From: Candidatus Saccharimonadota bacterium
Lineage (GTDB): Bacteria; Patescibacteriota; Saccharimonadia; Saccharimonadales; UBA4665
DNA length: 53,126 nucleotides
Assembly: GCA_020428025.1 (NCBI GenBank)
Contig: JAGQNO010000001.1
Location: 1-53,126 of the forward strand
Direction of reading: 5' to 3'
Shown here: one piece after another, positions 29,218 through 35,214 of the stretch
How positions within the stretch are numbered: position 1 is the stretch's first letter
How the letters are laid out: each line of letters starts with the position of its first letter
The notes under the pieces: model-generated
The model's database searches: none
Seen by the model: the letters and a program-made list of their open reading frames with translations, nothing else
What the model was told of the DNA's origin: nothing
Position numbers and translations under genes: made by a program

Positions 29218-29553
29218 CTAAACGTCTAAAAACACCCGCACAGTATCCTGATGCACGTGCAGTAGACCACCGGCAATCCGGATGCGCTTGTTACCGGACG
29301 GCGCCGCCACATGCATCTCACAAGAAGTTAAGAGCGAGATAAAGTTGTGGTGATGCGGCAACACATCAAACGGGCCGGTGGCGTTTTCTGCGGACAGGCT
29401 AAAGGCCTCTTCATTGTAATACACGTGGAAAGGCGAGTAGACTTTTAAGCTCATGACCGGCTTGCCGTCGACCAATTTTTCCTTGGGGGCTTCTGCGGCT
29501 GGCTGGCCGTCGTCTACAATTTGACCGGTGCTGGCGTCCTGTCTTTTTGCCAT
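29218..29553 (-). CDS. atpC: F1 epsilon-like subunit (beta-sandwich only, N-terminal extension, no C-terminal helical hairpin)
   Basis: MSLKVYSPFHVYYNEEAFSLSAENATGPFDVLPHHHNFISLL matches the epsilon pattern (l.v.tP......v..v.....G.fgiLp.H.p.i..L). Position is immediately after beta. Confidence 0.65.
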   Translation of the reverse strand: MAKRQDASTGQIVDDGQPAAEAPKEKLVDGKPVMSLKVYSPFHVYYNEEAFSLSAENATGPFDVLPHHHNFISLLTSCEMHVAAPSGNKRIRIAGGLLHVHQDTVRVFLDV

Positions 29554-29555
29554 CT

Positions 29556-30866
29556 TTAAACGATAATTTCCTCAATGCCCTTTAAGGTGTCTTCGCGGGT
29601 CCAGGTTTCTCCCTTGGTGGCGGACTGTGCTTCCATGACGTGCATGGGTTGGTTAAAGAATTGAATGAGCTTCTTGGCCTTGGCGTAATCGGAGCGGTCG
29701 GCGGCGGACAGTTCGTTCTCACCAATAATGGCAATAATGCCTTTCAGCGATTCGTACTTCTGCAGCAGTGCCTGCACCTGGAGGCTCAGCATGTAGTGCC
29801 GCTCGCCTACAATTTCTGGGCTTAAGAGCGATGAGCTGGAGCGCGTCAGATCCACAGCGGGGCGGATGCCCTGCTCTGCCACGGCACGAGACAGCACCAA
29901 GATTCCATCCATTTCGTGCTGAATCAACTGAACTGCAGGGTCAGACAGGTCATCGGCCGGCACGTAAATGGTTTGCACGGCGGTGATGGAGCCGTTCTCA
30001 TTGGAAGCCAGCCGGTCTTGCAGGGTCTTAATATCAGTAAAAATGGTAGGCTCGTAGCCACCTTCGTTGGGGACTTGGTCCAAAATGCTGGACAGCTCGT
30101 TGCGGGCCTGCACGTAGCGGTACATATTGTCCGCAAAGTACAACAGGTCCTTTTTCTGATCATCCCGGAAATATTCCGCCAGGGTTACGGCGCTAATGGC
30201 AATTAAAGACCTTTGCACCGGGTTTTGGTCCATCTGGCCAAAGAACATGCAGGTGTTTTTTAAGAGGTCGCCGTCTTTCAGCGTCTCGTATAATTCCGCA
30301 CCTTCACGGATGCGCTCACCAATACCCGCAAAGAACGACAAACCGCCGGTGCCCACCGCAATATTGTGAATCATTTCCATGGTAAGCACCGTTTTGCCCA
30401 CACCGGCACCACCAATAACGCCAATTTTGCGGCCCTTTACAAAGGGTGTAAAGAAGTCGATAACTTTAATGCCGGTCTCCAAGATTTCCGGCTTGGACTG
30501 GCCAAACGTGGTGGCACGTGGCGGTAGTTTAAAAATGTTGCGCTTTTCTAGATTAGGGTCCAGGGGACCGCAGTCGTCAATTGGATCGCCCACCGCGTTG
30601 ATAATGCGGCCAATCATAGCATCGCCCACGGCCACCTCTACGCTGTGGCCAGTAGGTGTTACGGGCATGCCCTTCTGAATATTGCGGTGCCCGTACAAGT
30701 TTAGACACTGCGCGGTGCGGGCATCCAGCAGCGCATGGACTAGCAGCGGTGTGTTGGTGTCATTACCAACGGTTATAACTTCATTTAAAGCCGGCATGCT
30801 CTCCGCATCGTCAAATTCTACATTGACCACCAAATCTTTCAAAGACCGTACCATTCCTTGGCTCAT
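29556..30866 (-). CDS. atpD: F1 beta-like catalytic subunit, strongly divergent (436 aa)
   Basis: Walker [18 protein letters not shown] catalytic Glu block, Walker [32 protein letters not shown]. Many near-invariant canonical blocks are altered. Confidence 0.85.
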
Positions 30867-31720
30867 GCCGACCGACTCCTCATAAGTTTCATACCGCTAA
30901 TAATCTCTTTCAGGCGCTGGTCGTTTAAGGCTCGTTTGGCGCGGTTGTATTCCGTATGCAAGTGCGCGTGCGTTTCTTGCGCCAAATCCTTAGCCGCAGA
31001 CATGGCGCGGAATCGACTCGCGTACTGCGCCAGCTTGGATTCCAAAATAGTTTGGCTTAAAGAAATTTCTAGCATGGTCCGCTCCAGGTGAGCCACCACC
31101 GCAAAGCTGGACGGTTCAAAAATGTAGTTGCGCTCACTGATTATATCGTCGCCCTCTTCCACTTTTTTACCGGCGGCTTGCACGGCAGCGTGGAGTTCAA
31201 TTTGCTTAATATCCTGCACCATTAAAGATATGTAGGTTTGATAAAAAACAGAGGTCGATTTGTACTGCTGCACATATCCAATCAATGGCGCCACATTAAT
31301 ATTGGCGTCTTTTTCTGGCAGCTTAAAGTACTTTTTAAAAGACACCCCGGCCTGACTCAGCTGCATGGCGCCGTGGTGGCCTACAATGACGATGTCGTGC
31401 TTGGTGGGGTCGTATTTTTTGAGCATCCAACTGATTAGGCGCTGGTCAATGTCGCCACTAAAGCCGCCCTCTGCGGTAATGGCAATAAACAGCTCCTTCT
31501 CTATGACTTTTGCTTCCGCGGTGCGGCCGTAATTAAACAATTGGTCAACGCGCAGCTGGCTGTACATTTGCCACAGGTCGGCAAAGAAGGCCTGGCTTTC
31601 TACCACCTGGTCTTTAATTTGCGCAATGCGCATACTAGACAGCCCCTCAAACGCGCTGGTCAGGGTGCTAATAGTGGCCATGGCCTTCTCTTCTAGCTCA
31701 ATATCTTGCGGACGCCTCAT
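30863..31720 (-). CDS. atpG: F1 gamma-like subunit
   Basis: C-terminal helix [23 protein letters not shown]...[19 protein letters not shown] matches the gamma signature (asE..aRm.AM..At.Na...l...yNr.RQa.IT.El.EI). 4-nt overlaps with both neighbours. Confidence 0.8.
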
Positions 31721-33297: not shown

Positions 33298-33812
33298 GCC
33301 TTGGGCGCCTCCTGCTTTGCGTGCAGACCCTCTATAAGCAGGTGCTTGTTATCGCGCAGCGAATTTTTGAGGCTAAAATCATACAATTTACTGGTGGTGC
33401 GCAGCGTGCAGCCCGCGGCAATACTGGGCTGCAGACCCACTTTAATCAGGAGCATAGGATGGATATTAGTGCGCAGCCAGGTGACAATTTTATTCATAAA
33501 AAGGCTGGACGGGTCAGCCGCAAAACTCATGGCCACAGCGGGCGCTTTGGTAAGCAAGGTGTCTAAATGCTTCAATAGCGCCTCTTGACCCTCTTGCTTG
33601 GCTAGATCGCAGCCGTAGCCGTTGGCTAGCTCTGCTAAGACTTTGCCCACCTTAGGTGTTTCTGTGGCTACACCAGCTTTGGTTTTTAGGCGGGCCGCGG
33701 TAGCAAGTTCTATGTGACGCTCTAGGGCGCGCTTAAGCCGCGCCACATCCCCCGGTGACACCACGCTCACAGGTAGGATTGCTTTAGGCTCCACGCCGCA
33801 CGTCCTCGGCAA
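33294..33812 (-). CDS. atpH: F1 delta/OSCP-like subunit (true start may be an internal GTG near 33794)
   Basis: C-terminal half [13 protein letters not shown]...[32 protein letters not shown] fits the delta pattern (v.sa..l......i.........v....vdp.liGG..v..g....D.S....L). Position is between b-like and alpha. Confidence 0.6.
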
Positions 33813-34326
33813 TGGCCTCTTTGTTAGCGCTTAGTTCGCCAATTATGTATTCTAACTGGTCAGATAAATCGATTTGATTCCCAATAGCAGCCAAGATGTA
33901 GTGGTTGACGATTTCTGCCATGTCGTCCTCAAAGCGCATGATCATCTGCTGCTTCTCTGCCTGCAGCTGAGCAGAAAGTTCCGCGGATAGGGCCTGACGC
34001 TGCTCCTCAATAACCTGATTGGTCTTTTCTATGCTATCTATGGCCAGGTTTTTGGCATCCATAATGGACTGCTCGTATTTGGCAAATTCTTCCTGCAACT
34101 TCTTGGTGATTTCTGTCTTCATGTACTCGTTTAACTGGCTAGTGGTTAAACGAAGGTCTTGCTGCAGGAACATAGCGTTCTCACCAATAATTTTCTCAAA
34201 GTGCAGACGACCGCGGTTTCTAAGCTCTTCCCGGAACTGATCATCAAAAATATGCTCGGCATTCATTTTTGCCGCTTCGTCAAGCTGCTGATCGGCTGAT
34301 TTTACTGGTTTTTTCTTTCCAAACAT
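33784..34326 (-). CDS. Coiled-coil stalk protein in the subunit-b position but with no transmembrane segment
   Basis: 180 aa, entirely hydrophilic and heptad-like (EEQRQALSAELSAQLQAEKQQMI). Synteny with atpF. No hydrophobic N-terminus. Confidence 0.5.
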   Translation of the reverse strand: MFGKKKPVKSADQQLDEAAKMNAEHIFDDQFREELRNRGRLHFEKIIGENAMFLQQDLRLTTSQLNEYMKTEITKKLQEEFAKYEQSIMDAKNLAIDSIEKTNQVIEEQRQALSAELSAQLQAEKQQMIMRFEDDMAEIVNHYILAAIGNQIDLSDQLEYIIGELSANKEAIAEDVRRGA

Positions 34327-34344
34327 GTCCCCACCAATTCTTCT

Positions 34345-35214
34345 TTATAATTTTAGCACTAAATAGACGGCGACTAAACAGCCGATAAAAATGAGCAGGC
34401 CGGTAATGACTACTTGGATCATGTTGCGCATAATCGATTGCTTGGCCAGCGGGTTTCTACCAATCGCCATCATGCCGCTCTGGATACCACCGTACATCAG
34501 GGCTGCAGTAATGCCAAAGCCAGCAAGCATAATGGCAATGCTGACGTAGAGCTGGCTGGCGTTAATTGGCTTACCAACAACGCTTATGGCTGCTTTTTGC
34601 ACAAACTGCGGCACGCCGCTACTGTTGGTGACCAGTAGCGGGTTTTTGGCCACGCCGATGTCTACCTGGACGCTACCAATTGCAGCTTGGATTTCTGCAC
34701 CTTTACTGGTTTTTAGCTTGGCTACAGAGGCCACATTGTTCTTGCCGTCAAAGGTGCCTACGGCGCGGCCTAGGATTGTAGCCTGACTTGTATCGGCTTT
34801 CATGCCAATTCCGCTGATGGCCGATACGCTTATGGGGTCGCCCGCACCAATACTACCGTTTTGATTACTAACCAAGACGTAATAGCGGCCACTCGTAACC
34901 ACATATACCTGATTACCCGCGGCCGTAGCCGGATCCGTGCTAGAGAGGCTAACCGCCGCACTATTAGGTGCCACCACCACTCCAAATAACTTCTTAGAGT
35001 CTGCATAAGTGGCAAGCGCGACGCTGCCTTGCTTCTTGGTGTCCGGCTGGACAATAAAGCCCGGCCGCAGCGTTTCCGATGCCTTGTATGCCTGAGCCAC
35101 GGACTGCAGACTAGAGGCGTTGGTGTTGGTTTGCTTATCTGCCGCTAAAACCGTTGCCGGCATTAGCAGCAAAACCACCCCTGTTATTACCGACCATGCA
35201 GCGCGGCGTATCAT
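34345..35214 (-). CDS. Signal-peptide protein with about 200-aa external domain fused to a C-terminal c-subunit-like helical hairpin lacking the ion-binding carboxylate
   Basis: Signal peptide MIRRAAWSVITGVVLLLMPATVLA. C-terminal LAGFGITAALMYGGIQSGMMAIGRNPLAKQSIMRNMIQVVITGLLIFIGCLVAVYLVLKL resembles the c-subunit TM1, ARQP-type loop and TM2. No D/E in either helix. Confidence 0.5.
   Translation of the reverse strand: MIRRAAWSVITGVVLLLMPATVLAADKQTNTNASSLQSVAQAYKASETLRPGFIVQPDTKKQGSVALATYADSKKLFGVVVAPNSAAVSLSSTDPATAAGNQVYVVTSGRYYVLVSNQNGSIGAGDPISVSAISGIGMKADTSQATILGRAVGTFDGKNNVASVAKLKTSKGAEIQAAIGSVQVDIGVAKNPLLVTNSSGVPQFVQKAAISVVGKPINASQLYVSIAIMLAGFGITAALMYGGIQSGMMAIGRNPLAKQSIMRNMIQVVITGLLIFIGCLVAVYLVLKL

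Follow-up and report, generated by a model that had tools for sequence, protein, structure and literature searches.

A conserved seven-gene cluster of Saccharimonadia that may encode an F1-like ATPase without ion translocation

Introduction

ATPases that resemble the F1 part of ATP synthase but are not coupled to ion transport have until now been regarded as a peculiarity of mycoplasmas, in which the Type 3 enzyme (F1-like X0 ATPase) is needed for antibody cleavage by the MIB-MIP system and the Type 2 enzyme is the gliding motor of Mycoplasma mobile (PMC3369863, PMC12994834). The literature found under ‘F1-like ATPase’, ‘F1-like X0’ and ‘G1-ATPase’ is all on Mollicutes and none of it pairs ‘F1-like’ with Saccharibacteria, and searches of the literature on Saccharibacteria yielded no more than generic statements of F-type ATPase presence. 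Here we describe a cluster of seven genes at positions 29218–35214 of a DNA stretch of 53,126 nucleotides from Candidatus Saccharimonadota (GenBank assembly GCA_020428025.1, contig JAGQNO010000001.1, positions 1 to 53,126), the whole of which is called the window in the following. An initial annotation, made from the letters of the sequence, had proposed that these genes encode an F1-X0 machine analogous to those of mycoplasmas and not an H+/Na+ ATP synthase.

A canonical counterpart is available for comparison from a cultured relative, as Southlakia epibionticum carries a complete atpI-B-E-F-H-A-G-(hyp)-D-C operon between NrdH and FolC, all genes of which are dispensable (PMC10633639). The ‘core family’ flag in the Southlakia table was discarded as evidence, as it marks families that are core across bacteria and not in Saccharibacteria specifically.

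Results and Discussion

The cluster consists of seven open reading frames (ORFs) on the minus strand in the order X-b-delta-alpha-gamma-beta-epsilon, with X standing for the protein in the c position, and we lean towards the view that they encode one self-contained, membrane-bound F1-like rotary ATPase that gave up ion translocation. Such an enzyme would probably spend ATP to move something at the cell surface and would not serve ATP synthesis. The genes are tightly packed, with overlaps of 4 nt at three junctions and of 29 nt at a fourth and with gaps of 18 nt and 2 nt at the others, and the end of a class-V aminotransferase/cysteine desulfurase gene lies 20 nt upstream of X. The window ORF scan thus bore out the initial annotation in its description of packed or overlapping ORFs in canonical subunit order, of the cysteine desulfurase next to them and of the missing subunit a gene at the locus. 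Compared with a 96%-identical relative the ratio of nonsynonymous to synonymous substitution rates (dN/dS) is 0.011–0.087 for all seven genes (b-like 0.011, alpha 0.012, beta 0.013, gamma 0.015), including the b-like gene whose product has no transmembrane helix in the window, and purifying selection on the cluster is strong. Because the catalytic motifs are kept across 65 species and dN/dS stays at 0.01–0.09, the seven genes can be regarded as functional and free of decay, and a reading as pseudogenes or relics was rejected on the basis of dN/dS and conservation. A scan for promoters and terminators gave counts no higher than the shuffled expectation.

In order to describe the distribution of the cluster we compiled 80 species loci together with those obtained earlier, giving 91 loci and 1.48 Mb in which all ORFs were searched locally. 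Matches were found for X in 86 of the 91 loci, for the b-like protein in 84, delta in 81, alpha in 84, gamma in 80, beta in 84 and epsilon in 70, and about 80 species carry the whole set of seven ORFs in intact form. The protein database contains 429 relatives of X, of which nearly all are labelled Saccharibacteria, and a relative is encoded in at least 402 Saccharimonadia species-representative genomes, while the b-like protein is represented by 5,655 distinct 90%-identity clusters in public data. Starting from the nearest non-orthologous beta sequences we also reached four more distant clusters (L093–L096). Two of them, from low-GC Patescibacteria (L093 and L094), show the same gene order with an X-like protein and an epsilon of 80–92 aa, and the same architecture is found in two further divergent lineages (L095 and L096). 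Relatives of the X-like protein of L094 carry names such as Candidatus Daviesbacteria and Blackburnbacteria, and the architecture recurs beyond Saccharimonadia, in Microgenomatia-type lineages. The gene order is therefore shared with related Patescibacteria, in at least 402 species and in divergent lineages, and the cluster is not special to this genome but widespread in Patescibacteria. In L096 a gene for a HAMP-HisKA-HATPase histidine kinase (L096:10432–11463) is located between the b-like and the delta-like gene, which is a hint of regulated activity.

The alpha-like subunit (526 aa; 31717–33297, minus strand) matches PF00006 with an E value of 4e-65 and the beta-like catalytic subunit (436 aa; 29556–30866, minus strand) with 2e-64. 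Their best NCBIfam models are those of canonical atpA and atpD, although both proteins stay below the equivalog cut-offs (alpha with TIGR00962, 390 bits versus 484; beta with TIGR01039, 435 bits versus 463), and the models for N-ATPase and mycoplasma F1-like ATPase are further off. Walker A and B motifs, the catalytic Glu and the Arg finger are all found, with GDSKVGKT and SVTRVGG in alpha. The statement that both subunits retain their catalytic hardware and at the same time depart from the blocks of housekeeping enzymes proved correct, with every quoted motif present. These features are under strong constraint, as 175 columns of alpha are at least 95% identical over 73 sequences and the same holds for 209 of 436 columns of beta in 65 species, RPAVD and every catalytic motif included. 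The C-terminal end of alpha is a low-complexity tail of about 50 residues rich in Pro, Glu and Ala (31720–31881, minus strand), which varies widely among relatives, from an alpha of 475 aa in L002 to one of 658 aa in L001.

Among 1.84 billion representative proteins the best full-length match to beta is 49% identical. In a crude neighbor-joining tree the X-type betas cluster together and apart from betas of canonical operons, with 35–46% identity between the two groups and 58–67% among the canonical betas themselves. This comparison with canonical F1, which the initial annotation had suggested, places the X-type betas outside the canonical group, but the distance tree is only indicative because it has no support values. 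Neither the beta search of representative proteins nor the cluster look-ups yielded a canonical beta from Saccharibacteria. The best canonical-looking candidate, P0296, belongs to a non-CPR operon (CPR, candidate phyla radiation) with b/b' and GS-GOGAT neighbors, and P0123 was rejected as a lone beta-like gene beside G6PD. Many of the best beta matches (P0122–P0270) are non-canonical beta-like proteins, with lengths of 550–1076 aa in several cases; two carry the label Mycoplasmatales, and one stands alone next to G6PD. The variety of divergent F1-like betas thus seems to exceed what the literature describes.

The gamma-like central-stalk subunit (285 aa; 30863–31720, minus strand) matches PF00231 over residues 11–278 with an E value of 7e-30 and TIGR01146 with 93 bits, below the cut-off of 194. 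The epsilon-like subunit (111 aa; 29218–29553, minus strand) matches PF02823 over residues 34–109 (E 1.5e-11) and contains the beta-sandwich only, so that the regulatory C-terminal helical hairpin is indeed absent as noted before. Its orthologs are 107–111 aa long in Saccharimonadia and 80–92 aa in the sister lineages. A charged, likely disordered N-terminal extension of about 33 residues (29455–29553, minus strand) is kept in Saccharimonadia orthologs and absent from the 80–92 aa epsilons of the sister lineages.

The protein X (289 aa; 34345–35214, minus strand) was analyzed from its ORF with Pfam, AlphaFold2 (AF2) and Foldseek. It starts with a Sec-type signal peptide (residues ~1–25), followed by an exported beta-rich domain (~40–190) and two C-terminal transmembrane helices (~219–253 and ~255–288) that are joined by a G-R-N-P loop. 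The beta-rich domain was identified as Phage_cement (PF22758; E 6.9e-7, 29.9 bits with a cut-off of 27), and homologs of X additionally match XM1_gp53 and Phage_cement_2, other cement or minor-capsid families in Pfam. In agreement with this, the ectodomain of the AF2 model (predicted local distance difference test score 80) resembles phage cement and decoration proteins in a Foldseek search against the PDB (8hdt_G, E 3e-5), the structural matches being capsid cement or decoration proteins of phages Pam3 and BB1 and of the archaeal virus HFTV1. A phage origin of the ectodomain was also considered, and no relative was found among IMG/VR contigs.

In c subunits an R-Q/N-P loop makes the contact with gamma and epsilon. 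The corresponding residues of X (G252, R253, N254 and P255) do not vary in any of the 38 homologs aligned from Saccharimonadia, and a GRNP-type loop occurs in 119 of 120 homologs of the sister family, i.e. the relatives of the X-like protein of L094. The modelled hairpin superposes on F-type c subunits with TM-scores (template modelling scores, normalized to the c subunit) of 0.80–0.86, a root mean square deviation of 1.3–1.8 Å and 19–23% identity, and the predicted topology, with the N terminus outside, the loop inside and the C terminus outside, is that of a c subunit. From fold, loop motif, topology and operon position we therefore call the predicted hairpin c-like, and two sister-family members have been labelled ‘F0F1-type ATP synthase membrane subunit c’ by the Joint Genome Institute (JGI) pipeline. 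What X does not have is the conserved membrane Asp or Glu that characterizes a canonical c subunit: among 82 Saccharimonadia homologs D or E is limited to three scattered hairpin positions, with one or two sequences each, and only 8 of 119 loop-bearing sister-family homologs have any D or E in the membrane helices. The description of the c-position protein as a 289-aa fusion with a secreted domain and without a membrane carboxylate can thus be maintained in all its parts, from the signal peptide and ectodomain to the lack of a conserved D or E in the hairpin. A rare X-like protein of the sister family, P0402, from a contig of 1.4 kb, carries a Glu in the middle of the second transmembrane helix (LLIITEIVGIAAA), which could be a retained or re-gained ion site.

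No other protein of the cluster is as conserved as the b-like peripheral-stalk protein (180 aa; 33784–34326, minus strand), in which 67 of 206 columns are invariant. In the window it has no transmembrane helix, and this has to be real because a TAA stop, the end of X, is in frame 18 nt upstream. The missing helix, which the initial annotation had reported as a feature of the b position, is however specific to this lineage: 78 of 79 other species have an N-terminal transmembrane helix in their orthologs, which are 202–227 aa long. The AF2 model of the ortholog from L001 consists of a transmembrane helix (residues 3–27), a linker and one continuous helix of about 160 residues (43–204), so that the full-length protein is predicted to have the architecture of a b subunit. 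Profile evidence for the family comprises weak, sub-threshold matches to ATP-synt_B in 9 of 32 members (best E 0.004), and some homologs carry the JGI label ‘F0F1-type ATP synthase membrane subunit b/b'’. A search of the b-like profile against PDB sequences gave nothing relevant and Foldseek with the single-helix model returned zero matches. For the delta/OSCP-like protein (172 aa; 33294–33812, minus strand; start codon uncertain) the profile matches are also weak, with E values of 0.005 for TIGR01145 and 0.06 for Pfam OSCP, both over the C-terminal part. When the family profile was compared with the PDB, the nine top matches were all OSCP or delta chains with the C-terminal domain in register (E 0.05–0.25). 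As the b-like protein combines a transmembrane helix with a helix of 160 residues and the delta-like protein matches the C-terminal domain of OSCP, a complete stator is probably encoded. The seven genes would then supply head, central stalk, peripheral stalk and a ring-like subunit, and of a complete enzyme just subunit a and the ion site are missing.

Directly after epsilon a protein of 103 aa with at least two predicted transmembrane helices is encoded (28797–29108, minus strand), and a terminator-like hairpin (29107–29128) overlaps its start codon. It is present in 1 of 82 species-representative loci, with a version of 161 aa in the 96%-identical relative (L005). As it co-occurs with the only anchorless b-like proteins, it might substitute for the b anchor.

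No subunit a was found with the cluster. Pfam detects neither ATP-synt_A nor ATP-synt_C among the 50 larger ORFs of the window, and within 10 kb of the cluster the 91 loci contain no match to the E. coli subunit a (phmmer), no c subunit and no second alpha/beta pair. The same distance applies to the 86 X-bearing loci, none of which has a subunit a together with X, and PF00119 is missing among the called genes around the four divergent clusters (L093–L096). The absence of subunits a and c is accordingly a statement on the window and on 10 kb either side of the matched gene. An apparent second gamma in L083 could be traced to frameshifts in a long-read assembly. The claim that there is no recognisable Fo therefore holds for subunit a and for a carboxylate-bearing c, but not for the c-like hairpin and the b-like and delta-like proteins, which are all present; since these parts are kept in canonical order, the Fo has to be called remodelled rather than absent.

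The position of the cluster also separates it from a canonical operon. The window and Southlakia share the block MetRS-TatD-two small genes-cysteine desulfurase-YdcF-MnmA-AlaRS-PilM, and in the window the seven genes and a number of surface-protein genes are inserted between the cysteine desulfurase gene and MnmA. As this insertion site is empty in Southlakia and the canonical operon (SEML1_0349–0358) is located about 300 kb away, the cluster is not the positional counterpart of the canonical operon. By its position it appears to be an extra element at its own locus and not a canonical operon mutated in place.

The surface-protein genes directly downstream of epsilon (21072–28804) comprise a 338-aa protein encoded on the opposite strand, with one transmembrane helix and a bactofilin-like beta-helix match, four paralogs with signal peptides (253, 411, 478 and 355 aa), which share an end motif like ‘...TPxGxYxxxLxxIATGTF’, a WxLIP_PGBD/fn3_5-domain protein with a C-terminal transmembrane helix and a PKD-domain protein. 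This block resembles a Csc/WxL-type cell-surface cluster and follows the ATPase genes in most of the 82 species loci, the 338-aa protein being found in 58 and the 253-aa protein in 56 of them. In L022 it is absent and epsilon is directly followed by MnmA-AlaRS. On the other side of the cluster TatD and the cysteine desulfurase are separated by two small overlapping genes (36361–37072, minus strand; 120 aa each, without a match in Pfam), at least one of which is kept in 72 of the 82 loci. The corresponding position in Southlakia is taken by two small hypothetical genes (SEML1_0661 and SEML1_0662), which are classified as growth-defect or essential by transposon sequencing.

From gene content, conservation, domain and fold assignments, the missing carboxylate and the missing subunit a near the cluster, all of which were computed, we infer the following mechanism. 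The alpha3beta3 part would hydrolyze ATP and turn gamma-epsilon, which in turn would dock on a ring of X subunits via their c-like hairpins, with the cytoplasmic GRNP loop of X in place of the R-Q/N-P loop of c subunits. The delta-like and b-like proteins would form the peripheral stalk, anchored by one transmembrane helix in most species, and torque or a conformational change might be delivered to an external crown formed by the phage-cement-like domains of X. No transport of protons or sodium is expected because there is no subunit a and no ring carboxylate, and it should be X and not another c subunit that sits under gamma and epsilon because the c-like loop is invariant. The enzyme may work in the direction of hydrolysis only, and the absence of the inhibitory helices of epsilon fits an enzyme meant to hydrolyze ATP. 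Overall the proposal of an F1-X0 machine instead of an H+/Na+ ATP synthase is supported in part: with no carboxylate, an exported X domain and no subunit a this is not an ordinary operon, but the Fo is remodelled and not absent.

Several observations weigh against this mechanism. If there is no subunit a, nothing obvious is left for the rotor to turn against or to hold the b helix near the ring, and the apparent absence of atpB and atpE, as far as it can be read from the sequences, applies to the surroundings of the cluster. The b-like protein of the window lineage has no membrane anchor and is yet under strong selection, which a simple stator picture leaves unexplained. In addition, homology between X and c subunits is not established by sequence, as homologs of X have no match to ATP-synt_C (PF00137) in Pfam and hhalign aligned only the loop of the X hairpin with a c subunit, at a probability of 3.7%, while the X profile found nothing among PDB sequences, and any helical hairpin can superpose on c. 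Finally, no effector gene is conserved beside the cluster across lineages, and as the neighboring genes differ between lineages no effector can be named, so that the output of the machine is a guess.

As an alternative, the cluster could belong to a real ion-translocating F-type ATPase with its only alpha/beta set encoded here, subunits a and c elsewhere in a split operon and X acting as an accessory or assembly protein. Split atp operons do occur in other bacteria, the alpha and beta proteins are closer in NCBIfam score to canonical atpA and atpD than to the models for N-ATPase or mycoplasmas, according to surveys F-type ATPase modules are frequent in environmental Saccharibacteria (PMC11659515, PMC12592800), and our searches for a and c covered the cluster surroundings. 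We nevertheless regard such an enzyme as improbable, as the cluster has its own b-like and delta-like proteins and a c-like hairpin in the c position, and if gamma and epsilon had another c ring docked to them, there would be no explanation for the invariant GRNP loop. Moreover, alpha and beta are under the equivalog cut-offs and outside the canonical group, epsilon has lost its regulatory helices, and Southlakia retains, elsewhere on its chromosome, a full canonical operon that includes alpha and beta of its own. A further reading, in which a reduced genome holds the decaying and functionless rest of an ATP synthase operon, could account for the missing subunit a, the missing ring carboxylate and the truncated b of the window lineage, and the canonical enzyme is dispensable in a cultured relative (PMC10633639). 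It is effectively refuted by seven ORFs intact in about 80 species, the low dN/dS of 0.01–0.09, the 209 of 436 nearly invariant columns of beta, 5,655 b-like clusters and the same architecture in divergent classes.

A somewhat more serious competitor, although still an unlikely one, is an F1-like ATPase that does not rotate a ring but is tethered to the membrane by X and b and energizes or gates surface proteins during export, assembly or conformational cycling, much as FliI-FliH-FliJ does at type III export gates. The relationship between F1 and the ATPases of type III secretion systems is established and alpha and beta score against FliI/SctN models too, a lost b anchor would be easier to tolerate if there were no torque to resist, and surface-protein genes adjoin the cluster in most Saccharimonadia. 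However, the strong selection on a full rotor (gamma, epsilon) and stator (delta, b) favors rotary mechanics, across lineages the cluster is not accompanied by any conserved export gate or channel protein, and L022 has the cluster but lacks the surface-gene block. We therefore keep the rotary, ion-uncoupled ATPase as the preferred reading. Going one step further, it might tentatively be suggested that Patescibacteria possess a widespread ATP-driven rotary motor with an external crown that transmits torque to the surface, for example for attachment to the host interface, movement on it or its remodelling, and which in many genomes is perhaps the sole rotary ATPase; we regard this wider picture as possible but doubtful. 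If it were true, a large share of the enzymes that bear the annotation ‘F-type ATP synthase’ in CPR genomes would neither make ATP nor pump ions.

Even without this extension, hundreds to thousands of Saccharimonadia populations, as well as Microgenomatia-type lineages, conserve a counterpart of the mycoplasma enzymes that is built differently. Where the energy metabolism of CPR genomes was deduced from ‘F-type ATPase present’, the deduction may be incorrect for these clusters. The path of transmission in the mycoplasma systems is obscure, whereas the compact system of seven proteins described here would offer an explicit link from the c ring to the surface in the form of a rotor subunit fused to an ectodomain. 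For work on cultured Saccharibacteria this provides a specific candidate for a surface machine of an epibiont that is powered by ATP.

Conclusion

In summary the cluster shares features with four described systems. With the canonical F1Fo ATP synthase (SEML1_0349–0358) it has in common the gene order from the c position on, the catalytic motifs of alpha3beta3, a gamma subunit, the beta-sandwich of epsilon, the C-terminal domain of delta and the R-N-P-loop hairpin in the c position; the architecture of b is seen in 78 of 79 related species but, for want of the transmembrane helix, not in the window. It differs in the lack of subunit a and AtpI, an epsilon without C-terminal helices and a different locus, in a ring subunit that has no Asp or Glu but a signal peptide and an exported domain of about 170 aa, and in alpha and beta below the equivalog cut-offs, with only ~40% identity to canonical enzymes for beta. 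Like the N-ATPase (TIGR03305/TIGR03324), which in some bacteria stands beside the housekeeping enzyme, it may be a second, divergent F-type cluster, but the N-ATPase keeps a and c with full ion-binding sites as well as AtpQ and AtpR, while here neither a nor c is present and the scores with the N-ATPase models (399 bits versus a cut-off of 752 and 322 versus 750) are far too low for membership. FliI-FliH-FliJ and SctN-SctL-SctO also combine an F1-related ATPase with gamma-like and b/delta-like partners and energize a membrane process other than synthesis, as proposed here, although FliI and SctN are homohexamers at an export gate, whereas our cluster lacks gate proteins and encodes an alpha/beta heterohexamer together with gamma, epsilon and delta.

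The closest likeness is to the mycoplasma Type 3 clusters (MSC_0618–0624/MMCAP2_0575–0581) and the Type 2 G1-ATPase of Mycoplasma mobile (MMOB1610–1670), which also consist of seven genes, and the analogy drawn at the outset was apt, as seven genes, divergent alpha and beta with catalytic motifs and the lack of both subunit a and a carboxylate-bearing c are shared. Both occur in genome-reduced, host-dependent bacteria and are proposed to use ATP for a surface function (PMC3369863, PMC12994834), and in mycoplasmas the F1-like ATPase has been shown to coexist with a canonical Type 1 operon. In contrast, the order is c-b-delta-alpha-gamma-beta-epsilon here and 12TM-small-gamma-epsilon-SP2TM-alpha-beta there, b-like and delta-like proteins are present here and in none of the mycoplasma clusters, and neither the protein with 12 transmembrane helices nor the small cytoplasmic ‘protein 2’ has a counterpart in our cluster, with which no protein with multiple transmembrane helices is conserved. 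X with its 289 aa and phage-cement-like domain is unrelated to the mycoplasma proteins of 87–127 kDa, so that the likeness is topological only. No NCBIfam family matched X at E ≤ 1, and at this level the b-like and delta-like proteins gave no match to the models of the mycoplasma F1-like ATPase either. The models for the MSC_0618 beta (NF045934, 371 bits versus a cut-off of 570) and the MSC_0619 alpha (NF045936, 254 versus 520) score lower than the canonical ones. We therefore do not file the cluster in the mycoplasma F1-like X0 family; by analogy it appears to work similarly, and it was very probably derived independently from an F1Fo operon.

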